The notes under the pieces were generated by a model, which ran no database searches, was not told the DNA's origin, and worked only from the letters and a program-made list of their open reading frames with translations. The position numbers were made by a program, and so were the translations under genes. A DNA stretch of 64,000 bases from an uncultured Ignavibacteriales bacterium (GTDB lineage Bacteria > Zixibacteria > MSB-5A5 > GN15 > JAAZOE01), in the NCBI GenBank assembly GCA_964523575.1, contig CAZGAV010000006.1, positions 6,222 through 70,221 on the forward strand. The letters are read 5' to 3'. Below are positions 3,445 to 59,044 of the stretch, in pieces (the stretch's first letter is position 1; the number at the start of each line of letters is the position of its first letter).

Positions 3445-3951
3445 CTATAACTCGCTATCGGTAGTAGTATCGGGCGGTAAATTCTGCTCAAAATCTGTTG
3501 CGGTCGTCCCACCGGGACGGATTTCCGGATGTCGGATTTCGCCCCCTTTGTTGGCGGCTCCGGCCAGCAGGACGCTGGTGATGATGGTGAATAAGAGCAG
3601 GGTGGCCAGGAACATACCCGACAAACTTCTCTGGGCACGATAGAGCAGGAGACTTCCGGCGGCAACCGCACCCAGCACAAGAATCGCGATTAAGGCCTGC
3701 TCGGCGGCTTCCAAATGAAGATGCACGGCCTCCGGTGAAATGTCCGGCCATCCGGCCATCATTTCCTCGGCCGCGCCGCCGGAGAGATAGACCGGGATAG
3801 TCAGGAGAGCGATAATGAATATCATCCAGAGGGAGGTTTTGATCATGGTTTTGTTGCGCCCGATGACGGCAATAAGCATAAAGACCATAGCGAACATGAT
3901 ACCGGTGACCGGGATATGATTGACGATGAGATGAAAATGCGCCGCATTCAT
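3445..3951 (-). CDS. Hypothetical integral membrane protein (about 4 TM)
   Basis: I moved the start to the ATG at 3951 (MNAAHFHLIVNHIPVTG...) because a GGAGGGGAG RBS lies 8 nt upstream. The 34-aa upstream extension in the track has no RBS. Confidence 0.5.
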   Translation of the reverse strand: MNAAHFHLIVNHIPVTGIMFAMVFMLIAVIGRNKTMIKTSLWMIFIIALLTIPVYLSGGAAEEMMAGWPDISPEAVHLHLEAAEQALIAILVLGAVAAGSLLLYRAQRSLSGMFLATLLLFTIITSVLLAGAANKGGEIRHPEIRPGGTTATDFEQNLPPDTTTDSEL

Positions 3952-4071
3952 GGAACCGTCTCCCCTCCAGCCAGCCTCCGGGAAATGTTTCAGACTATTA
4001 AGATACGCAATTTCGGCTCGGGGTTCAACCTGAAATCCGCCCCTGTTGTGCAATCGGCAAATCAGGCATGT

Positions 4072-4109
4072 AGCAATAAAGAACCCCGCCGATCCTTCGG
4101 CGGGGTTTT
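4072..4109 (-). terminator. Intrinsic terminator after the hbd-crt operon (usable bidirectionally)
   Basis: An 11-bp perfect stem AACCCCGCCGA (4082-4092) / TCGGCGGGGTT (4097-4107) closes a TCCT loop. It is followed by UUCUUUAUU on the minus strand and UUUUA on the plus strand. Confidence 0.65.
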
Positions 4110-4206
4110 ATACTAATGGGTGAGCACTCCCCCTCCTCGTTCGCTTGAATGCGAAAAACTGCAAATCAAAGGAGACAGGCAGAAAGTCCAACTCCTGAAC
4201 CTTTTA

Positions 4207-4986
4207 TCACTTATGCTCGAATTTGGGCGGGCGTTTATCCAGGAATGCCTTGAGCCCCTCGACCGCATCGGCATAACCGAAATTGTTGCCGAAAGAGACC
4301 TTTTCCAGATCGCATCCGGCCGACAAATTGACATCCAAACCGCGATTGATCAATTCCTTGGCCAATCTCAGCGACGGCGCACTCTTGGAGGCGATTTTGG
4401 CCGCCATTTCCATGGCCTTGTTCATCAGTTCTTCCGGCGGGTAAACCTGATCGACCAGCCCGATGCGATAGGCTTCGGCGGCCGAAACCATATCACCGGT
4501 GAAGATCAACTCCTTGGCCTTGCCGCGGCCCACCAGACGAGACAGTCTCTGCGTACCGCCGTATCCGGGGATAATACCAAGATTGACTTCGGGCTGGCCC
4601 ATCTTGGCCTTTTCCGAGGCCAGACGGATATCGCAGGCCATAGCCATTTCGCATCCGCCGCCGAGCGCAAAGCCGTTGACGGCCGCGATAATCGGGCAGG
4701 GGAAATTCTCGATGGTCTTCATCAGGTGCTGGCCGATCATGGCCAGCCGGGCCGCGCCGGCGACGTCCAGCTTGGAAAGTTCGCCGATATCGGCTCCGGC
4801 CACGAAGGCTTTGCCGGCTCCGGTGATCACGACGCAACGGAAATCACGCTCCATCCAGTTGGCAGAGAAGAAACTGTGCATTTCCGAAATAACGGCGGCA
4901 TTGAGGGCATTGAGCGCCTCTTCGCGTTTGATAGTGACCACGGCCACCGCATCTTTGATCTCGACCGTTATATTTTTGAAATCCAT
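4207..4986 (-). CDS. crt: Short-chain enoyl-CoA hydratase (crotonase)
   Basis: 259 aa. Has the crotonase-fold signature VVITGAGKAFVAGADIGELS and a conserved ...GGGCEMAMACDIR... region. Confidence 0.9.
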   Translation of the reverse strand: MDFKNITVEIKDAVAVVTIKREEALNALNAAVISEMHSFFSANWMERDFRCVVITGAGKAFVAGADIGELSKLDVAGAARLAMIGQHLMKTIENFPCPIIAAVNGFALGGGCEMAMACDIRLASEKAKMGQPEVNLGIIPGYGGTQRLSRLVGRGKAKELIFTGDMVSAAEAYRIGLVDQVYPPEELMNKAMEMAAKIASKSAPSLRLAKELINRGLDVNLSAGCDLEKVSFGNNFGYADAVEGLKAFLDKRPPKFEHK

Positions 4987-4999
4987 AAACGCCTCGTTC

Positions 5000-5854
5000 C
5001 TATTTCTTAGTGTAATCGTAAAAGCCGCGGCCCGATTTTTTGCCTAGATATCCGGCCTTGACCATCCGGCGCAATAGCGGGGGCGCGGCATAATGCTTGT
5101 CCTTGTACTCCTCGAACATGATGTCGGCGATATGCAACATGGTATCGAGGCCGATAAAATCGTTGAGAGTCAGCGGCCCCATGGGATGGCCACAGCCCAT
5201 CATCATGCCGCTGTCGATATCCTCGCGGCTGGCGGCTCCGCTTTCGAGCATCCGGATGGCATCGAGAAGATAAGGCACCAGAAGAGCGTTGACGATGAAT
5301 CCCGGTCGGTCTTTGGCCATGACGACCGTCTTGCCGCAAGCTTCGGCGAATTCTTTAGCAGTGGCAATAGTCGCTTCGGAGGTATCCAGCGTCCGCACCA
5401 GTTCGCACAGCTTCATGATATTGACGGGATTGAAAAAATGCAGGCCGCAGAATTTATCGCGGCGATTGGTGGCCGCCGACATATCGCCGACCGGAAGCGA
5501 AGAAGTATTGGTGGCCAGAATGGTTTCCAGTTTGCATACCTTATCGAGTTCCTTGAAAATTTTTACCTTTTCTTCCATATTTTCGACAATGGCCTCGACG
5601 ACCAGATCGCAGTCGGCCAGGTCGGCCAGATTGACGGTGCCGGTCAGATTGGCCATCGTTTTATCCTTGAAGGCCTGGTCGGCCTTGCCCTTTTCAATGG
5701 CTTTGTCGAGATTTTTTTCGATGCGGGCAAAGCCCTTCTTCCACAGTTCCTCGGTCACTTCGCGGGCAACCACCTTTACTCCGGCCTGCGCGGCCACCTG
5801 GGCGATACCGCTCCCCATCTGTCCGCAACCTACGACTCCCAGTTTCCGGATCAT
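5000..5854 (-). CDS. hbd: 3-hydroxybutyryl-CoA dehydrogenase
   Basis: 284 aa. Has the N-terminal Rossmann motif KLGVVGCGQMGSGIA and a C-terminal 3-hydroxyacyl-CoA dehydrogenase domain. It lies directly upstream of crt. Confidence 0.9.
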   Translation of the reverse strand: MIRKLGVVGCGQMGSGIAQVAAQAGVKVVAREVTEELWKKGFARIEKNLDKAIEKGKADQAFKDKTMANLTGTVNLADLADCDLVVEAIVENMEEKVKIFKELDKVCKLETILATNTSSLPVGDMSAATNRRDKFCGLHFFNPVNIMKLCELVRTLDTSEATIATAKEFAEACGKTVVMAKDRPGFIVNALLVPYLLDAIRMLESGAASREDIDSGMMMGCGHPMGPLTLNDFIGLDTMLHIADIMFEEYKDKHYAAPPLLRRMVKAGYLGKKSGRGFYDYTKK

Positions 5855-5978
5855 GATTGACTCCTTACCGTTATCTGTTATAGAATTCCGTGTTGTCGGT
5901 TTGGCAGATTAGTAAATTAACAGATTGGCGGATGATGTCAAGAGGGGGAGCGATCAAAAAGTCCAAAGGGACCGAATT

Positions 5979-6803
5979 CTATCTCAATTTCTGGCACCGG
6001 GGACAAAAATGAGCCGAACGACTCCCAATTTTTTCGCGAACGACAACATGACCGCAATTCAGGCAGGGTTGGCCCTCACGGCCATAAACCCGCAGATATT
6101 TTTGGTATCGTCCCGGCTGTCCATTGACTCCGGCAAAGGTGTCAACCGAGGTACCCATCATCCGAATGGCGTGGGCCAGAATTTCTTGTATGTGGCCATG
6201 CAGGGCACGCAGTTTGGCTCGCGATACCGTATCGGTCAGCTTTCGGGGATGAATTCTGGCGCGAAATAGTGACTCATCGGCGTAGATATTCCCGATGCCG
6301 ACAATCAGCGATTGATCGAGTAGCGCCGGTTTGATCATCCGGCGGCGCGAACGTAAAAGGGTGACAAAGCCATCGGCGGATATTTCGAGCGGTTCGGGGC
6401 CCAGTTCCACCAGCCCTTTTTGCTTCATAATCTCATCGGTCGGATAAATTCTCAGTCGCCCGAAACGGCGATAATCGTTGAAACGCAGGTTATAACTGTT
6501 TTCCGCCAGATGAAAGATCAGGTGATCGTGTTTGTCGACCGGCGTATCCGAAGGCAGGTAATAAAAATGTCCGGTCATTTTGAGATGCACCCAGAGAGTG
6601 TAGCCATCGGAAAGGTCGATCAGGATATTTTTCCCGCGCCGTCGAATACCGAGAATCTTTTGCCCCGTCAGCATAGCGGCGAATATTTTCTTTCCGGGAT
6701 AAATTCGTTCGGCGTTGTTGATTTCCACGCCGGTGATGATGCGGCGGGCGATGGTCTGGCGTAATGAGCGCACCACCGTTTCGACTTCTGGCAGTTCCGG
6801 CAT
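5979..6803 (-). CDS. mutM: Formamidopyrimidine-DNA glycosylase
   Basis: The true start is the ATG at 6803, giving the invariant N-terminus MPELPEVETV. The C-terminus has the zinc finger CLNCGHVV...CPRCQ. The 63-aa extension in the track would overlap iscU. Confidence 0.9.
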   Translation of the reverse strand: MPELPEVETVVRSLRQTIARRIITGVEINNAERIYPGKKIFAAMLTGQKILGIRRRGKNILIDLSDGYTLWVHLKMTGHFYYLPSDTPVDKHDHLIFHLAENSYNLRFNDYRRFGRLRIYPTDEIMKQKGLVELGPEPLEISADGFVTLLRSRRRMIKPALLDQSLIVGIGNIYADESLFRARIHPRKLTDTVSRAKLRALHGHIQEILAHAIRMMGTSVDTFAGVNGQPGRYQKYLRVYGREGQPCLNCGHVVVREKIGSRSAHFCPRCQKLR

Positions 6804-51341: not shown

Positions 51342-52736
51342 ATGGCAGAAGAAATAATTCATGATAATTGCGGCGTCTTCGGGATCGTCGGCGCCAGGAA
51401 AGCCGCCGAACTGACTTACTTCGGCCTCTATTCCCTCCAGCATCGCGGACAGGAATCAGCCGGAATCGTGACCTCGGACGGAAATCGCTTATATCTTTAT
51501 AAAGGGATGGGGCAAGTTTCCGACGTCTTTTCGGAAGAGCTTGTTTTTGATCGTCTCAAAGGCAGTACTGCCGTCGGGCATGTCCGCTATTCGACCACCG
51601 GCGCCAGTTCCATTACCAATATTCAGCCATTTGTAATTACCAATCGCGACCGGATGCTGGCCGTGGCACATAACGGCAACCTGACCAATTCGCTTGAATT
51701 GAAGCAAAGGCTGGAAGCCAGCGGCTCCATTTTTCAAACCACGTCCGATACGGAAATCATCCTCCATCTCGTGGCCCGATCGCAGGGAGAAGACAATTTC
51801 AGTAAAATTTGCGAAGCCGTCAAGAAATTGAAAGGCGCCTACTGTTACCTCTTCTGCGAAGAGAACGGTATAATCGCCGCCCGTGATCCCTGGGGTTTCC
51901 GACCGTTGGCTCTGGGACGACTCAATGGTCACTGGGTGGTGGCTTCGGAAACCTGCGCCTTCGATATTATCGGGGCCAAATACGAGCGTGAAATCGAGCC
52001 GGGCGAAGTCCTCGAAATCACTTCCAATGGTTTACGCAGTTCTTTTCCGCATCGTAAGGTCAAACATGCTTTCTGCATTTTCGAATATATTTATTTCTCA
52101 CGTCCGGATTCAATCATATTCGGCGAAAACGTCGATAAGGTCCGGCGGCGGCTGGGACGCCTGCTGGCCCGGGAGCATCCGGCCGAGGCCGATATCGTCA
52201 TCGGTATCCCCGACTCGGCCAACACAGCGGCGCTGGGTTATTCGGAAGAATCCGGGATTAAATTCGAAATCGGCCTGATTCGGAATCATTATGTGGGACG
52301 GTCTTTTATCGACCCCGAGCAGAAAATCCGCGATCTCGACGTCAAAGTCAAATTCAATACAGTCAAAGGCGCTATCCAGGGCAAGCGGGTAGTACTGGTC
52401 GATGATTCCATTGTCCGCGGAACGACCTCCAAAAAACTGGTGCAGTTGGTGCGTCAGGCGGGAGCCAAGGAGATTCATTTCCGGGTTTCCGCGCCGCCGC
52501 TGATTTCCCCCTGCTATTTCGGCATCGATATGCCGACCAAAGACCAATTCATTGCCAACAAGAAAACCATCAAACAGATCGAGAAATACCTCAAAGTGGA
52601 ATCGCTGGGCTACCTCTCGGTCAAGGGTATGCTGGCGATGCCGTCATTGCCGGACGATAATTTCTGCGTCGGTTGCTTCACTTCCAATTACCCCATCAAG
52701 ATAGACGCCGTCAATAATAAGTTCCAGCTGGGCTGA
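51342..52736 (+). CDS. purF: Amidophosphoribosyltransferase
   Basis: Has the N-terminal nucleophile context NCGVFGIVG, a short propeptide, and the PRPP loop VVLVDDSIVRGTTS. Confidence 0.9.
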   Translation: MAEEIIHDNCGVFGIVGARKAAELTYFGLYSLQHRGQESAGIVTSDGNRLYLYKGMGQVSDVFSEELVFDRLKGSTAVGHVRYSTTGASSITNIQPFVITNRDRMLAVAHNGNLTNSLELKQRLEASGSIFQTTSDTEIILHLVARSQGEDNFSKICEAVKKLKGAYCYLFCEENGIIAARDPWGFRPLALGRLNGHWVVASETCAFDIIGAKYEREIEPGEVLEITSNGLRSSFPHRKVKHAFCIFEYIYFSRPDSIIFGENVDKVRRRLGRLLAREHPAEADIVIGIPDSANTAALGYSEESGIKFEIGLIRNHYVGRSFIDPEQKIRDLDVKVKFNTVKGAIQGKRVVLVDDSIVRGTTSKKLVQLVRQAGAKEIHFRVSAPPLISPCYFGIDMPTKDQFIANKKTIKQIEKYLKVESLGYLSVKGMLAMPSLPDDNFCVGCFTSNYPIKIDAVNNKFQLG

Positions 52737-52819: not shown

Positions 52820-52883
52820 ATTATGTAGAGTAACCGGAGACGTTCATACCCCTATGTCTTGCCTTTTGGTACAGGTGCCCCGG

Positions 52884-55616
52884 ATGAAAAAAGCGGCGAA
52901 AATAATCTTGATACTGGCCCTGTGCGCTGGTTTTCCCGGCGCCTCCGCTGCCGCCGAGCGTCCGCCTTCCCAAAGGATAATCAACCGGAGTTCCGAAAAC
53001 CTGATTCCCCGGCAGGCGGCAGTCAAGCCTGCGACAGTCTCGATCGATCCCGGCGCTGAAATCGACCGGGTGATCGTCAAACTGACTGAGGGGTCGCGCG
53101 GAAGGCTGGCCGACGGCAGAATCCTTTCGCTTGGGGGCCGAAATCTGACAGAAATCAACCATATCGTTGACGCCAATTCGGCGGGTTCAATTCAGAGACT
53201 GACCGATAAGACTCCCGATCAGGTCGAGCGTCAGAAATTTCTATTGGAAAATAAATGCGGCCGCCAGCTGGCCGATATGAATAATTATTTCAGCATCCCG
53301 GTTTCATCGGCGGCCGAAGCGGAGAATTTGATAAGGCAATTGAATGCACGGCCCGAAGTGGAAATCGCCTATGCCGAACCGCGTCCGATCTACGCCATTG
53401 ATATCCCTCCCTCGACGCCTCACTATGACAGTCTCCAGTTGTATTTGCGGCCCGCTCCCACCGGGATTGACGCCGATTATTCCCGAACCATCACCGGTGG
53501 TGACGGTGCCGGGGTCAGGATTGTCGATATCGAGGGCAATTGGAAATTCGACCATGAGGATCTCGACGGAGCCGCCGGCGGCCTTATCGCCGGCGATCTT
53601 ATTGACGATCAGAATTGGCGCAATCATGGGACGGCTGTGATCGGTATTATGATCGGCGGCGACAACGGTTACGGCGTGACCGGTATTGTTCCCAACGCCA
53701 GTATCGGCATGGTTTCCATCGGAAGCATGAGCACGACTGAAGCGATTCTTATGGCGATCGACAGCATGGAGGCCGGCGATATATTGCTGATGGAGCTCCA
53801 CGCCCCCGGGCCGCGATACGATTTTTTGCCGCGCGACGATCAGATGGGTTATGTCTGCATGGAATACTGGCAGGGCAATTTCGATGCTTTTCAACTGGCC
53901 TGGGCCAAGGGGATTATCGTCGTCGAAGCCGCCGGCAACGGTTACGAGAACCTCGACGATGCTATTTATGAGAACCGCTTCGATACCACCTACCGCAATT
54001 CGCATGCTATCATGGTCGGCGCCGGGGCTCCTCCATCGGGCAATTACGGCCTCGATCGAGCCAAGATGGATTTTTCCAATTACGGTCATCGACTCAATCT
54101 TCAGGGATACGGTCAGGAAGTGGTTACGACCGGCTACGGACTTCTTTTCACGGGCGGCGGCGACGAGCGCCAGTATTATACCGGAGGTTTCAACGGCACC
54201 TCATCGGCGGCGCCGATGGTGGCTGGAGCAGTGGCGGCCCTGCAAGGGATATATCAGTTGCGATTCGGGGGAGCGATGCTTGATGCCGACCGCGTTCGTG
54301 ACGTCCTTTACGCTACCGGTACGCCGCAACAACCGTCCTCATGGTTGAATATCGGACCGCGGCCCAATTTACGGGCGGCTGATTCGGCTCTACCGGCCCC
54401 CCTGGAATTGAGTTTGAATCCTCTCTATTTCGATACCCTCGTCGAGGTCGGCACTCAAATATCGGTCTTCTTTGACATGACCAACCAGTCATCGGAAACG
54501 ACGCTGGAATATTCCATCACCGCCCTTGACAGTCTGGCCAAGAACCCTGTCGGCGATTGGCTCAGGGTGGCCAGTTCGACTGGGATGATTTCACCCCTTA
54601 ATCTTGAAACTGTGGAGGTGGTCCTTGACGGTACAATTATCGAAGACCGTTCGCAGATTTACAAAGGCCTGATTGAGATCAGCTACGGCGAGCAGGGTGG
54701 ATCAATGGACAAAAAGGCCGTAGTGCCGGTTTTCGTAACTGTTCCATGCGCTGATACGACATATGCCGTAAAATCTTCATCCGATCCCGAAGGAACTGAT
54801 TTTAATTGGATCGATATCACGACCATCGGCGCGAAAATTCAATCGTATTCATGGTACAACGATTTCGTCTCCGAGGAAATCCTTGATGACGGCACAGCCG
54901 GGCCGTTCTATATCGGTTTCGATTTCCCCTTCTATGACAGCGTTTACCATTATATTTATATCGGCGCCAACGGCGGCTTGTCATTGACCGACAGCGACAT
55001 CAACGTCGAAGGGTACTATGAGGCGGTGCCTATCCCCAACCCGCCTTTCGAGACATTTATCGCGCCTTTCTGGAATGATTTGAATCTTGATGTTCCCTCG
55101 GGCGGGCACGGTTCGGTTTATTTATATCGTCACGGTCCCGACAGCCTGGTCGTGGCTTTTCATAATGTCGCCGGTTACAGTTTCCCATCTGATACGAATA
55201 TTACCTTCGAGGCCATCCTGACCCGAAACGGCAACATCAAATTCCAATATCTTTCGGTCGGTGATTCGGGGATGGCCGATTCGGCCATTATCGGCATTTC
55301 CAAGTATGACTGCCAAGCGGCGCCTTATGTATTGGAAAGCGATCCGATCGAACATCTTGTGACCGACAGCACGGCTGTCCTGTTCGATTATGCCTATATA
55401 ATCTGGGAGATGTCCGGTGACGCCAATGGCGACGGCGACGTCAATATCGGTGACGCCGTCTATATGATAAACTGGATTTTCAAAGGCGGACCGGCGCCAA
55501 AAAATTTGAAAGAGGCCGACGCCAATTGTGACGGTAATCCCAACGTCGGCGACGCCGTTTATCTCATCAATTACGTCTTCAAATCCGGCCCGGCTCCATG
55601 CTCATATGAATTATAA
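52884..55616 (+). CDS. Secreted S8 subtilase with a C-terminal dockerin-like module
   Basis: The catalytic triad contexts are VRIVDIEGNW, HGTAVIGIM and GTSSAAPMVAGAVAAL. The start at 52884 (MKKAAKIILILALCAG...) gives a signal peptide. Confidence 0.85.
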   Translation: MKKAAKIILILALCAGFPGASAAAERPPSQRIINRSSENLIPRQAAVKPATVSIDPGAEIDRVIVKLTEGSRGRLADGRILSLGGRNLTEINHIVDANSAGSIQRLTDKTPDQVERQKFLLENKCGRQLADMNNYFSIPVSSAAEAENLIRQLNARPEVEIAYAEPRPIYAIDIPPSTPHYDSLQLYLRPAPTGIDADYSRTITGGDGAGVRIVDIEGNWKFDHEDLDGAAGGLIAGDLIDDQNWRNHGTAVIGIMIGGDNGYGVTGIVPNASIGMVSIGSMSTTEAILMAIDSMEAGDILLMELHAPGPRYDFLPRDDQMGYVCMEYWQGNFDAFQLAWAKGIIVVEAAGNGYENLDDAIYENRFDTTYRNSHAIMVGAGAPPSGNYGLDRAKMDFSNYGHRLNLQGYGQEVVTTGYGLLFTGGGDERQYYTGGFNGTSSAAPMVAGAVAALQGIYQLRFGGAMLDADRVRDVLYATGTPQQPSSWLNIGPRPNLRAADSALPAPLELSLNPLYFDTLVEVGTQISVFFDMTNQSSETTLEYSITALDSLAKNPVGDWLRVASSTGMISPLNLETVEVVLDGTIIEDRSQIYKGLIEISYGEQGGSMDKKAVVPVFVTVPCADTTYAVKSSSDPEGTDFNWIDITTIGAKIQSYSWYNDFVSEEILDDGTAGPFYIGFDFPFYDSVYHYIYIGANGGLSLTDSDINVEGYYEAVPIPNPPFETFIAPFWNDLNLDVPSGGHGSVYLYRHGPDSLVVAFHNVAGYSFPSDTNITFEAILTRNGNIKFQYLSVGDSGMADSAIIGISKYDCQAAPYVLESDPIEHLVTDSTAVLFDYAYIIWEMSGDANGDGDVNIGDAVYMINWIFKGGPAPKNLKEADANCDGNPNVGDAVYLINYVFKSGPAPCSYEL
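55416..55613 (+). other. Dockerin-like double-repeat module (copy 3 of 3)
   Basis: The module reads GDANGDGDVNIGDAVYMINWIFKGGPAP...ADANCDGNPNVGDAVYLINYVFKSGPAP. Confidence 0.75.
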
Positions 55617-55753: not shown

Positions 55754-57202
55754 CTACATGATCAGGAAAACCGACGAGGTCGCCAGATCGAGGAAAAAGC
55801 CGGGGAACAAACCCAGAATGAGCGTTCCGGCAACCGTAATAACGATGGCCACACCGATGGTAAAGCCGATTACCGGTTCGCGATCCTCACTGTCAACACG
55901 GTCGAAGAAAGCCGCCTTGACCGGTCGCAAATAATAGAAAACCGAAATCAGGCTGTTGAGCACGGCCACAATAACCAGCCAGACCAGTCCGGCATTGACC
56001 GCCGCCGAAAAGAGATAGAATTTGCCGAAAAATCCAGCCGTGGGCGGAAAACCGGCCAGCGAAAACATGAATAGCGCCAGAAAGACCGACAACCACGGAT
56101 GGCGCGAGGCCAGCCCTTTGAAGGTATCGATATGGTTGGAGCCGCCGCTCTTGTTCTCGATAATAATGAGCATCGTAAAGGCGCCCATGTTGAAGAACCC
56201 ATAGGCCAGCAAGTAGAACAGAGCCGCCGAAACGGCGTCGCTTCCCCCGGCTGTGACAGCCACCAGCAGATAACCGGCATGGGCGATGGAACTGTAGGCC
56301 AGCATACGTTTGACATTGTCCTGCATGAGGGCCAGGATATTGCCGACCGTCATGGTGAAGAAGGCCAGAATCCAGAACAACGGCTGGAAATCGACGAAGA
56401 CCGTCCCGAAACCGATCATGAAAATCCTCAGGAGAGCCGCCACGCCGGCGGCCTTGGGACCGACGGAAAAGAAGGCTGTGACCGGCGTCGGCGCTCCTTC
56501 ATAGACGTCCGGCACCCACATATGGAAGGGGAAGGAAGCGATTTTGAAGGCGAAGCCTATCAGGACCATGGCCGCCCCGATCATCAGGTACAATTGGTTT
56601 TTGTACATGGCGATCCCGGACGACATGAATATCTGCCGCAAATCGGTGGTCCCGGTGCCGCCGTAAACCAGCGCGATACCGTAGAGCAGGAAGGCCGAGG
56701 CGAAAGCGCCCATGAAGAAATACTTGGCCGAGGCTTCGGTCGATTTGAGGTTGCCACGCATGAATCCCGCCAGCACATATAGAGGCAGGGACATGATTTC
56801 GAGGCCGAGGAAAATGACCATCAGATTCGATGAAGAAACCATGATCATCATGCCGGCCGTGGAAATCAGCATCAGGGCATAGTATTCGAGCCGGTCAATG
56901 CCACGGCGGGCCAGATAATCACGCGAGATGAGAACGGCCGTACCGCAGGTGAGCAGAAAAATAAGCTTGCAGAAAAGGGCGAAATTGTCGCAGACGACCA
57001 TCCCGAAATAGCCGGTTTGCTGGCAGTTCCAAAGGCTGATCACGAAATATAGCGAGGTCAGCACCGCCAAAATCGACAGCGTCGGAGAGACGATTCGCTT
57101 CCGGTTCAGAGGCGCCGCGACCAGCATGACAAAGGCAAACACCAGAAGCGCCAGTTCCGGCATGATGATTTCAATATTTATGGCAGCTGTCAACTGCGAC
57201 AT
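55754..57202 (-). CDS. nuoN: NADH-quinone oxidoreductase subunit N
   Basis: 482 aa with about 14 TM segments, an antiporter-like subunit. It is the last gene of the nuo cluster and has a GGAGA RBS. Confidence 0.9.
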   Translation of the reverse strand: MSQLTAAINIEIIMPELALLVFAFVMLVAAPLNRKRIVSPTLSILAVLTSLYFVISLWNCQQTGYFGMVVCDNFALFCKLIFLLTCGTAVLISRDYLARRGIDRLEYYALMLISTAGMMIMVSSSNLMVIFLGLEIMSLPLYVLAGFMRGNLKSTEASAKYFFMGAFASAFLLYGIALVYGGTGTTDLRQIFMSSGIAMYKNQLYLMIGAAMVLIGFAFKIASFPFHMWVPDVYEGAPTPVTAFFSVGPKAAGVAALLRIFMIGFGTVFVDFQPLFWILAFFTMTVGNILALMQDNVKRMLAYSSIAHAGYLLVAVTAGGSDAVSAALFYLLAYGFFNMGAFTMLIIIENKSGGSNHIDTFKGLASRHPWLSVFLALFMFSLAGFPPTAGFFGKFYLFSAAVNAGLVWLVIVAVLNSLISVFYYLRPVKAAFFDRVDSEDREPVIGFTIGVAIVITVAGTLILGLFPGFFLDLATSSVFLIM

Positions 57203-57229
57203 ATTCGTCTCCAGATCGTGTTACGACGC

Positions 57230-57248
57230 ATGCGGCTCACGGCCGCAT
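57230..57248 (-). promoter_or_regulatory. SECIS-like hairpin downstream of the in-frame UGA
   Basis: The minus strand reads AUGCGGC-CGUGA-GCCGCAU: a 7-bp perfect stem with a GU-containing 5-nt loop. It begins 12 nt after the UGA at 57263-57261. Confidence 0.4.
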
Positions 57249-57251
57249 CAA

Positions 57252-57476
57252 TTAGAATCCTCAACCGCCGCCCCAGCCGACTTTGACTTCTCCCTTATCG
57301 ACAATGACCGGGACTATTCGCCGACCACCCGAAAGGTCGAGGAGTTCCTTCTGGGCCGCGGCGTTTCCGACGACATCGACTTCGTCATAGGCGATGTCCG
57401 CGGAATCATAATGCTCTTTGGCCGCCTGACAATAGGGGCATCCCGGCTTGGTAAACATTTTCACCTCAGCCATCAT
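57252..57476 (-). CDS. Glutaredoxin-like protein (CPYC), candidate selenoprotein with a C-terminal U-G-F
   Basis: The core at 57264-57476 has a thioredoxin fold with KPGCPYCQAAK. The track stop TGA (57263-57261) is followed in frame by GGA TTC TAA (57260-57252). The ATG overlaps the nuoM stop (ATGA). Confidence 0.6.
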
Positions 57477-59044
57477 TGACCTCCACCACCACTAACGGTT
57501 CCGACTTCCACGCTTTCCGCCTGTCCGGCTCGAGCGGCCCGGTCGGCCTCGTACATGCTCCGTCCCTTTTCCACCTGCCGGATAACCGTTTTGACCGACG
57601 GTTCCATGAAATTGAAAAACGGTTTTGGGTAGAAACCGATCCAGAAAACCATGATAACCAGAGGCACCAGGACGATCTTCTCCCGCAGGCTGAGATCGAC
57701 CAGTTTTTCATTGGCGGGATTGGTCAATTTGCCGTAAAAAACCCGCTGATACATCCACAGCATATAACAGGCCGCAAAGACCACGCCGCTGGCGGCCAGA
57801 ATGGCATAGACCTTGTTATACGACCAGGCGCCCAACAGAATCGTGAACTCCCCGACAAAACCATTGGTGCCCGGGACGCCGATGGACGACAACAGGATAA
57901 TCATGAAGAAAGTCGAATAAACCGGCAGTTTGCCGGCCAGACCGCCATATTCACTGATCAGCCGCGTGTGACGGCGCTCATAGATCATTCCGACCAGAAT
58001 AAATAGTGCCCCGGTGGAAATGCCGTGGTTGATCATCTGGATAACCGACCCCTCCATTCCCTGCAGATTGAGAGTCATCATGCCCAGCATGATAAAGCCC
58101 ATATGAGACACCGAGGAAAAGGCGACCAGAGATTTGATGTCCTTCTGCACCATGGCTACCAGCGCGCCATAGATAATGCCGATTACGGCCAGTACTGAAA
58201 TAAGGGGCATGAATGCGAAAGTAGCGACCGGGAAAATCGGCAGACAGAAACGGATAAAACCGTAGGTGCCCATCTTGAGCAAAACGCCGGCTAGAATCAC
58301 CGACCCGGCCGTCGGCGCTTCGACATGAGCGTCGGGCAACCAGGTATGGAACGGCCACATCGGCACTTTGATAATAAAGGCCAGACCGAAAGCGGCAAAA
58401 AGCCACATCTGCATATCGCGCGCCAGAGGCATGCCGGTAATTTTAATGAGGTCGAAAGTGTACTCGCCGAAAACCGCATGGTATTGGAAATACAACACCA
58501 GAATCGCGACCAGCATCAACAACGATCCGACCATGGTAAACAAGACAAATTTGATGGCGGCGTAAACACGCCGCTGACCGCCCCAGATGCCGATCAGGAA
58601 ATACATCGGGATGAGCATCACTTCCCAGAAAACGTAGAACATGAACAGATCGAGGGTGACGAAAACGCCCAGCATGCCGGTTTCGAGCAGAAGAATCGAG
58701 GCGTAAAATCCTTTATGCGAATGTTCCACGGCTTTAAAGGTTGACAGTATGGCGATGGAAGTCAGGAATGTCGTCAGCAATACAAGTAGCAGTGAGATAC
58801 CGTCGATTCCCAGGTGGAAATGGATGCCCATCTGCGATATCCAGGGGACATCGGCGACGAATTGCATTCCTGTGGCGACAGTGTCGAAACGGAATACGAG
58901 ATCGAGCGACGAGATAAAGGTCAGCAGGGAGAAAAACAGGGCCGAATGTCGGATCGAGACATGGTGATCCTTCGGGATCAGCATAATGAAGAACATCCCC
59001 AAAAGCGGCAGGAAGGTGATGATTGTCAGAATCCAACTACTCAT
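57473..59044 (-). CDS. nuoM: NADH-quinone oxidoreductase subunit M
   Basis: 523 aa, an antiporter-like subunit. Its position between nuoL and nuoN supports the call. Confidence 0.9.
   Translation of the reverse strand: MSSWILTIITFLPLLGMFFIMLIPKDHHVSIRHSALFFSLLTFISSLDLVFRFDTVATGMQFVADVPWISQMGIHFHLGIDGISLLLVLLTTFLTSIAILSTFKAVEHSHKGFYASILLLETGMLGVFVTLDLFMFYVFWEVMLIPMYFLIGIWGGQRRVYAAIKFVLFTMVGSLLMLVAILVLYFQYHAVFGEYTFDLIKITGMPLARDMQMWLFAAFGLAFIIKVPMWPFHTWLPDAHVEAPTAGSVILAGVLLKMGTYGFIRFCLPIFPVATFAFMPLISVLAVIGIIYGALVAMVQKDIKSLVAFSSVSHMGFIMLGMMTLNLQGMEGSVIQMINHGISTGALFILVGMIYERRHTRLISEYGGLAGKLPVYSTFFMIILLSSIGVPGTNGFVGEFTILLGAWSYNKVYAILAASGVVFAACYMLWMYQRVFYGKLTNPANEKLVDLSLREKIVLVPLVIMVFWIGFYPKPFFNFMEPSVKTVIRQVEKGRSMYEADRAARAGQAESVEVGTVSGGGGQ

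Follow-up and report, generated by a model that had tools for sequence, protein, structure and literature searches.

The primary paper on the Uxx-star family of glutaredoxin-like proteins is said to be Haft & Tolstoy 2025, in mSystems 10:e0141724. A 2026 review lists the family among predicted prokaryotic selenoproteins and credits it to Haft & Tolstoy 2025, and it also describes redoxins of the U/CxxC/S type, in which selenocysteine (Sec) replaces a cysteine in the N-terminal active-site motif (PMC13188914). Here we analyse a glutaredoxin-like gene (grx) that lies between nuoM and nuoN, two genes of respiratory complex I, in a 64-kb stretch of DNA from an uncultured bacterium (contig CAZGAV010000006.1). 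This stretch is called the window below; all coordinates follow its numbering, and grx and the nuo genes all lie on its minus strand. The gene very probably encodes a Uxx-star glutaredoxin-like selenoprotein of 73 or 74 residues, ending ...GWGGG-Sec-Gly-Phe, whose in-frame UGA would be recoded with the help of a selenocysteine insertion sequence (SECIS) and whose tail would take part in its redox chemistry. It belongs to a selenoprotein family already known from computational prediction and is probably mis-annotated.

The Uxx-star open reading frame (ORF) spans 57476..57264 on the minus strand (71 codons, product MMAEVKMFTKPGCPYCQAAKEHYDSADIAYDEVDVVGNAAAQKELLDLSGGRRIVPVIVDKGEVKVGWGGG) and meets its first in-frame stop, TGA, at 57263-57261; GGA TTC (57260-57255) and TAA (57254-57252) follow in the same frame. 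A first-pass annotation of this DNA had singled out an ATGA overlap with the nuoM stop, a 71-residue ORF with a CPYC motif, the string TGA-GGA-TTC-TAA and a hairpin behind it, and each of these is present where it was placed. The features of the gene are:

57252..57476, minus strand: full coding sequence of the predicted Uxx-star glutaredoxin-like selenoprotein, with 71 (or 70) sense codons, UGA read as Sec, Gly, Phe and TAA (NF041212, PF00462, AlphaFold model)
57429..57440, minus strand: CPYC redox motif, Cys13-Pro-Tyr-Cys16 (seen in the sequence; invariant in 29 homologues)
57261..57263, minus strand: in-frame UGA, proposed Sec codon, residue 72 (TGA in 82 of 83 homologous loci)
57252..57260, minus strand: two-codon tail GGA TTC (Gly-Phe) and predicted true stop TAA (comparison of 18 nuo-embedded sequences)
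57230..57248, minus strand: SECIS-like hairpin AUGCGGC-CGUGA-GCCGCAU, in the 49-nucleotide spacer before nuoN (sequence, folding, compensatory changes)

The in-frame UGA, its tail and the hairpin behind it

The first-pass annotation had pointed to a 'Uxx-star' family ending Sec-x-x-stop. Such a family is catalogued in NCBIfam as NF041212 ("Uxx-star family glutaredoxin-like (seleno)protein"), and the gene clears the curated cut-off of 66 bits: the ORF without its tail reaches 100 bits, and when Cys stands in for Sec and G-F is appended the score is 108.1 bits over profile positions 1-70 of 70.

The simplest alternative to Sec insertion is that UGA is an ordinary stop, that the product is a glutaredoxin of 70 or 71 residues and that the hairpin is an intercistronic RNA element such as a stabiliser, a processing site or a weak attenuator. 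Public protein records (P-numbers) are annotated in just this way: P0025, P0046, P0070, P0073, P0075, P0079, P0091, P0129, P0135 and P0141 are each a 'glutaredoxin family protein' or 'Glutaredoxin' of 70 residues that ends at the proposed Sec codon, and the same truncated annotation is found on a 3.5-Mb Zixibacteria contig of GCA_900498245.1. TGA is, moreover, a normal stop in this genome, ending 8 of 30 confident window genes, nuoM among them. On that count we rejected a genome-wide reading of UGA as a sense codon. A scan of the window for other TGA-split genes gave only same-frame neighbouring genes and shadow ORFs.

Homologous loci (L-numbers) were compared at this position. Protein searches returned 29 and then 6,612 homologues, of which we inspected the 29 together with 14 longer ones among the best 120. 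All inspected proteins share a final ...G-G column, which is where a gene caller would stop at a UGA, and 70 residues is the length of nearly all of the best 120. The DNA of 84 loci was fetched with N-terminal and central protein patterns, blind to the C-terminus, and 83 loci were assessed for their stop codon, as one runs off its contig. The first in-frame stop is TGA in 82 of these and TAA in one, a bias with P ~7e-30 even if 40% of stops are assumed to be TGA, and one that is specific to this position because TGA is an ordinary stop in the window. In 81 of the 82 TGA loci a second in-frame stop follows after 2-5 conserved codons. The first-pass annotation had raised the prospect that orthologues might simply terminate at the GGG; they do not.

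The tail peptides are conserved within clades (G-F, G-I, G-V, A-I, TVH, TVHD, TIIPD). Among 18 sequences embedded in nuo operons, the tail is G-F in 12, G-I in five and S-I in one, with the stop always at +3 codons. The first tail codon in these sequences is GGA, GGC, GGG or GGT and once AGT, followed by TTC, TTT, ATT or ATA. Variation of this kind at third positions is what translated sequence shows.

Only two of the 83 loci depart from the rule. L056 (654-846) ends early at TAA (...SGWK-stop), before any Sec codon, and in L035 (4960-5161) TGA is followed by 20 sense codons instead of a short tail; both may be decayed or divergent members.

The window hairpin is a perfect 7-base-pair stem (AUGCGGC/CGUGA/GCCGCAU, 57248-57230, -10.5 kcal/mol) that begins 12 nucleotides after the UGA, with its loop beginning at 19 nucleotides. 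We counted hairpins at the corresponding place in the homologous loci with a loop-anchored procedure in Python, which picks the best hairpin per sequence and takes random windows and other TGA stops as controls. The best hairpin starts 9-19 nucleotides past the UGA in 77 of 80 loci. Its stem is mostly of 6-9 base pairs, its 5' arm takes 56 distinct forms among the 80 loci, and the commonest loops are GGUC (20 loci), GUU (14), GUC (nine), CGUGC (eight) and CGUGA (six). Overall, what follows the UGA at 17-25 nucleotides is usually a GC-rich hairpin whose loop contains GU. Under a strict SECIS-like definition (at least 6 base pairs, GU in the loop, loop start 14-26 nucleotides after UGA), 57 of the 76 distinct sequences carry such a hairpin; the corresponding rate is 1.5% in 15,200 random windows drawn from those loci (P ~7e-88) and 6.6% at the TGA codons that end long ORFs. 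In the nuo clade, 2-4 Watson-Crick pair types are seen at each of six loop-proximal stem positions, and pairing falls to 58% when 3' arms are swapped between loci. The hairpin is thus conserved where the TGA is, with compensatory changes and GU-containing loops; the first-pass annotation had named a lack of such conservation as a ground for refutation. RNAalifold, run on a MAFFT alignment of 11 downstream regions, gave no pairs, the variable spacers and loop sizes being misaligned. For reference, the experimentally established E. coli fdhF SECIS, a sequence that we confirmed in fdhF across 5,419 genomes, carries GGUC as its loop, with a counted start 18 nucleotides after the UGA.

Several results weigh against the assignment of this gene as a selenoprotein and against the mechanism that we propose for it below. 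The window hairpin has a folding z-score of -0.39 on 61 nucleotides and of -1.4 on 37 nucleotides (8.8% of shuffles fold as well); on its own it is not beyond chance in GC-rich sequence, and it gains significance only through comparison. The covariance-model search suggested by the first-pass annotation came back empty: no Rfam family, bacterial SECIS or other, matches the element, the whole window giving nothing at gathering thresholds and positions 57150-57320 giving only noise at E<=10. The 64-kb window holds no tRNA of any kind, hence no tRNA-Sec. Its 20 largest other ORFs, which include fpg, a CopA-type ATPase, a sigma-54 activator, birA, ilvC, cystathionine enzymes, an ABC-F protein, MacAB-like transporters, ApbC and purF, include no selA, selB or selD, and tblastn with metagenomic SelB gave no match in the window. 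No Cys-for-Sec homologue is present among the best 120 of 6,612 matches to a profile with a Cys-substituted tail, all 120 being forms that end at UGA; the classical Sec/Cys pairing evidence is absent rather than contrary. No Uxx-star protein is included among the experimentally verified selenoproteins of the 2026 review (PMC13188914). Finally, contact between tail and active site is argued from fold topology, and the proposed role in complex I is drawn solely from gene position.

An ordinary stop would be in keeping with the non-significance of the window hairpin taken alone and with Sec machinery not being seen in 64 kb. It would not lead one to expect TGA in 82 of 83 loci from several phyla, nor a tail that is conserved in residues while varying synonymously, nor a second stop in frame at a constant spacing. 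No T-run follows the hairpin, which drew no terminator call; in its GU loop and in how far it lies from the UGA it agrees with the fdhF SECIS; and the tail raises the score on a curated selenoprotein model. We regard an ordinary stop as very improbable. An intrinsic terminator was likewise rejected as a reading of the hairpin, given the missing T-run and its absence from the terminator-like sites.

On Sec machinery beyond the window, 447 kb of related loci contain no tRNA-Sec. Three loci of a sister clade whose proteins end G-Y-Sec-G-V (L020, L074 and L080) give indirect support for Sec decoding, since each has a SelB gene (PF09106, PF09107, PF25461) upstream of its Uxx-star gene, at a distance of two genes. 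In L020 the SelB gene is at 3589-5496 (+) and the Uxx-star gene at 5951-6163, and the other two loci are arranged alike. Between the SelB and Uxx-star genes lies a conserved 120-residue ORF, 68-77% identical across the three loci.

If the gene is decoded as a selenoprotein, the hairpin 12 nucleotides past the UGA at 57263-57261 would act as a bacterial SECIS during translation of the nuo mRNA. It would recruit SelB-GTP-Sec-tRNA(Sec), upon which Sec would be inserted, two more residues added and translation ended at UAA. With just two codons between the Sec codon and the stop, the SECIS would fall in the spacer before nuoN and not in the coding sequence. If selenium or SelB were lacking, translation would yield the 71-residue protein with no tail. 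Genes of this kind are annotated as truncated at the Sec codon, and the selenoproteome of these phyla would therefore be under-counted.

Sub-family, fold and proposed redox couple

The Pfam Glutaredoxin model (PF00462) matches the protein with 55 bits. UXX-star family 1 (NF041114, cut-off 72) gives 68.0 bits for the tail-less protein, 73.8 once the tail is included, and 68-80 bits for five nuo-embedded relatives; on these scores the nuo clade appears at best peripheral to family 1. Families 2 and 3 (NF041211, NF047338) give 74.1 and 72.5 bits, below their cut-offs of 100 and 97, and the nuo-embedded relatives, at 63-86 bits, also stay under them. The best model for the nuo clade is the general NF041212 (106-117 bits), and none of the named sub-families is convincing. 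The cut-offs of classical redoxin models were failed as well: TIGR02181 (Grx3) gave 46 bits against 90, TIGR02194 (NrdH) 33 against 85.75 and TIGR02196 (YruB) 54 against 88.55.

An AlphaFold model was built for the 71-residue core only, with 29 aligned homologues. It predicts a minimal thioredoxin fold, beta-alpha-beta-alpha-beta-beta, with a pLDDT (predicted local distance difference test) of 92, strands at 5-9, 31-34, 57-60 and 63-66, and helices at 14-25 and 39-49. The model has no C-terminal helix, and its last residues are of low confidence. The best structural matches are BC3987 (3zit/3zij), the Clostridium glutaredoxin cGrx1 (7c10, template modelling score 0.78), E. coli Grx3, NrdH and the Grx domain of thioredoxin-glutathione reductase (TGR); the top sequence match in the PDB is Grx3 (1fov, E 1e-8).

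CPYC is invariant in the 29 homologues, and the second cysteine is replaced by threonine in L041, L046 and L071. These CPYT proteins (L041:1259-1462, L046:57-260, L071:783-984), which are the best match to NF041114 (114 bits), retain the first cysteine and a Sec tail, GGT-Sec-G/S-V. Because the variants keep the first cysteine and Sec, the comparison suggests that Cys13 and Sec72 form a minimal, conserved redox pair. Thioredoxin-fold topology would place the end of beta4 against the start of beta3, which comes after a cis-proline (Pro56) that packs against the CPYC site. The flexible, glycine-rich tail GGG-Sec-G-F would then leave the end of beta4 beside the cis-Pro/CPYC edge of the sheet. Since the tail is predicted to emerge beside the active site, Sec72 could reach Cys13 and form a selenenylsulfide. 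We infer from this arrangement a Cys13-Sec72 selenenylsulfide/selenol-thiol couple carried on a mobile tail, like the GCUG tail of animal thioredoxin reductase.

Other Uxx-star clades differ in their tails and context. Sister clades (L011, L014-L016, L018, L021, L024, L026 and about 50 more) have tails of 3-5 residues, T-V-H, T-V-H-D or T-I-I-P-D, and many of these longer-tail members carry an extra cysteine in a VPCIV strand; two representatives scored only 73 and 88 bits on NF041212. The hairpin loop differs by clade, being GGUC with TVH, GUU in the TIIPD type and CGUGC/A with TVHD. In L017, L023, L025 and L033, ORFs of about 205 residues ending ...GFGGG-Sec-A/T-I fuse an N-terminal domain of about 130 residues (...APCGAVS...C...) to Uxx-star; these are probably HUGP/GUXX-star double selenoproteins, and all lie shortly downstream of a tRNA cluster, Arg-Trp-Leu-Gly-Cys-Leu. 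A short form, L022, matches NF045501 at positions 164-236.

The gene in complex I operons

The window carries the gene string nuoG?HIJKLM-grx-N, with the genes for NuoL, K, J, I and H and the end of a NuoG-like protein upstream. The features flanking grx are:

57473..59044, minus strand: nuoM, NADH-quinone oxidoreductase subunit M, 523 residues (TIGR01972, 627 bits)
57480..57484, minus strand: putative Shine-Dalgarno-like GGAGG within the end of nuoM, 3 nucleotides before the ATG at 57476 and 6 before the ATG at 57473 (from the sequence)
57209..57212, minus strand: putative Shine-Dalgarno-like GGAG, 6 nucleotides before the nuoN start (from the sequence)
55754..57202, minus strand: nuoN, NADH-quinone oxidoreductase subunit N, 482 residues, start 57202 (TIGR01770, 466 bits)

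The ATG of grx at 57476-57474 shares bases with the nuoM stop TGA at 57475-57473, forming ATGA. An alternative ATG at 57473-57471 gives a 70-residue form (MAEV...-like) and overlaps the nuoM stop by one base as TGATG. The two adjacent codons (57471-57476, minus strand) give an N-terminus MM..., and most homologues have 70 residues and begin MA(D/E)V. The second ATG (57473) may be the real start, and the coupling to nuoM is kept with either.

With the Nuo proteins of the window as tblastn queries, nuoM and/or nuoN were found directly adjacent to the Uxx-star gene in 14 fetched loci, and six further close homologues on long contigs have the order ...nuoJ-K-L-M-grx-N. One or both genes thus adjoin it in 20 of 20 other loci of the clade, on both sides in all 14 with both flanks visible, and nuo neighbours are found in 0 of 66 loci of other Uxx-star clades. 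The first-pass annotation, which had asked whether the nuoM-grx-nuoN arrangement is conserved, also called the location unusual; that holds for glutaredoxins in general, but in the nuo clade the location is the rule. The carriers belong to Zixibacteria, Calditrichota, Candidatus Deferrimicrobium (a phylum of its own) and unclassified bacteria, with NuoM identity to the window down to 48-66%. The gene starts within the nuoM stop in 10 of 12 assessable relatives as well as in the window, and in the other two it starts 1 and 4 nucleotides beyond. The spacer between grx and nuoN is 33-57 nucleotides in the window and 10 relatives with a placeable nuoN start, little more than the hairpin. In L089 (4213-4486) the spacer is about 270 nucleotides, and a SECIS-like hairpin lies there.

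To our knowledge, no partner with a thioredoxin fold or with selenium has been described for a bacterial complex I, and a literature search for such a partner found none. Literature searches also gave no description of a glutaredoxin between nuoM and nuoN, a position that Haft & Tolstoy 2025 may mention, and no paper on Zixibacteria selenoproteins. The fixed placement of one Uxx-star clade in the nuo operons of several phyla appears to be undescribed.

As grx overlaps nuoM and lies ahead of nuoN, its product would be synthesised along with the membrane arm of the enzyme. Its position points to a thiol/selenol oxidoreductase serving complex I as the most likely role, for example by reducing oxidised or glutathionylated cysteines or by handling the peroxide that the complex makes, and we rate this role at about even chances. 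More tentatively, the protein could be a dedicated selenoprotein partner of complex I in Zixibacteria, Calditrichota, Deferrimicrobiota and relatives: 74 residues, co-translated with NuoM and NuoN, and either an accessory redox subunit or a bound repair factor. In that capacity it would use its Sec tail to hold the cysteines of the complex in reduced form or to remove peroxide where it arises.

Sec might also be inserted into what is otherwise a general cytoplasmic redoxin, whose place among nuo genes reflects convenient co-expression or inheritance. The protein has no membrane segment and no obvious docking domain, and in other clades Uxx-star genes stand beside selB, rhodanese, a peroxiredoxin-like gene, aspartyl-tRNA synthetase or ribose-5-phosphate isomerase. 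Yet a general redoxin would not by itself account for a nuoM-nuoN position that is the same in all 20 other loci, in Zixibacteria as in Calditrichota and Deferrimicrobium and with NuoM down to 48-66% identity, nor for a nuoM start/stop overlap kept in most loci; persistence within so tightly packed an operon would be expected of a functional partner. We take this explanation to be possible, if somewhat unlikely. Among the non-nuo genes, a rhodanese lies directly upstream of Uxx-star in L018 (5664-5984, +) and an AhpC/TSA-redoxin-like gene directly downstream in L051 (6249-6866, +), which are sulfur or peroxide redox contexts.

Operon position could also be explained by metal chemistry, if Sec and the CPYC cysteines bound a metal or an Fe-S cluster and the protein were a metallochaperone or cluster-delivery factor for complex I. 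Complex I requires many Fe-S clusters, and a generic suggestion of this kind has been made in review (PMC13188914). Against it, the proline of CPYC disfavours cluster binding, the cluster-binding glutaredoxins being CGFS or CSYC, the gene sits among the membrane-arm genes L, M and N, which are without clusters, and the CPYT variants lose one potential ligand. A metal-binding role seems improbable to us, and we retain a thiol/selenol oxidoreductase as the preferred function.

Beside nuoN, the window carries a 920-residue ORF without an NCBIfam match (52854-55616, +), followed by purF (51342-52736). The same order, with a Peptidase_S8 protein of 905-908 residues and purF, occurs in L085:11773-16175 (Zixibacteria LS998015.1) and L086:15465-19733 (GCA_030668485.1), and the Peptidase_S8 protein of L085 carries a dockerin domain. 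The shared gene order suggests that the window derives from a bacterium resembling Zixibacteria. Exact look-ups placed the 71-residue protein solely on a 2.7-kb JGI contig and returned no record for NuoL.

Significance and comparison with known systems

A gene fixed between nuoM and nuoN across at least three phyla offers a testable lead on how complex I is maintained in its redox state. The bacteria concerned are mostly uncultured, and most are known solely from metagenome assemblies. If the protein were a dedicated partner, a bacterial respiratory complex I would depend on selenium. The clade would also be a compact natural example of a bacterial SECIS working from a 3' spacer, past the true stop, and the fdhF-type GGUC loop of many members may ease testing in E. 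coli.

Among described elements, the fdhF SECIS resembles the window hairpin in starting about 11-12 nucleotides after the UGA and in its loop start, 18 nucleotides against 19 for the CGUGA loop of the window, and 20 of 80 Uxx-star hairpins share its GGUC loop. The two differ in place and build: the fdhF element is itself coding sequence, and its stem is longer and bulged, whereas the window hairpin is a perfect stem of 7 base pairs in the 3' spacer, after the predicted true stop.

As a protein, the product is like other Uxx-star members in sharing a common fold, CPYC, a predicted Sec three residues before the stop and a hairpin just past the true stop. It differs in that the nuo clade scores below the cut-offs of families 2 and 3 and below or barely above that of family 1. 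With the Sec-containing bacterial glutaredoxins and thioredoxins of the U/CxxC/S type it shares a small Grx/Trx fold and an origin in anaerobes, cGrx1 (7c10) being the nearest solved Clostridium glutaredoxin. Unlike that type, it keeps both active-site cysteines, and Sec would be an extra at the C-terminus. E. coli Grx3 and the NrdH/BC3987-type proteins have the same redoxin fold with CPYC (or CxxC); the window protein differs from Grx3, NrdH and YruB in scoring far under their cut-offs, in lacking a C-terminal helix and in having the predicted Sec tail.

The closest parallel to the proposed mechanism is found in animal thioredoxin reductase and TGR, where Sec is carried on a short and flexible C-terminal tail, flanked by glycines, that is believed to pass electrons to or from a cysteine centre; one of the structural matches to our model is the TGR Grx domain. 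Those enzymes are large flavoproteins with an adjacent cysteine (GCUG) and a eukaryotic SECIS in the 3' untranslated region, whereas the window protein would be a stand-alone redoxin of 74 residues, with no flavin domain and with a hairpin of the bacterial, SelB type. The parallel between the tails is one of mechanism, by analogy, and not of homology.

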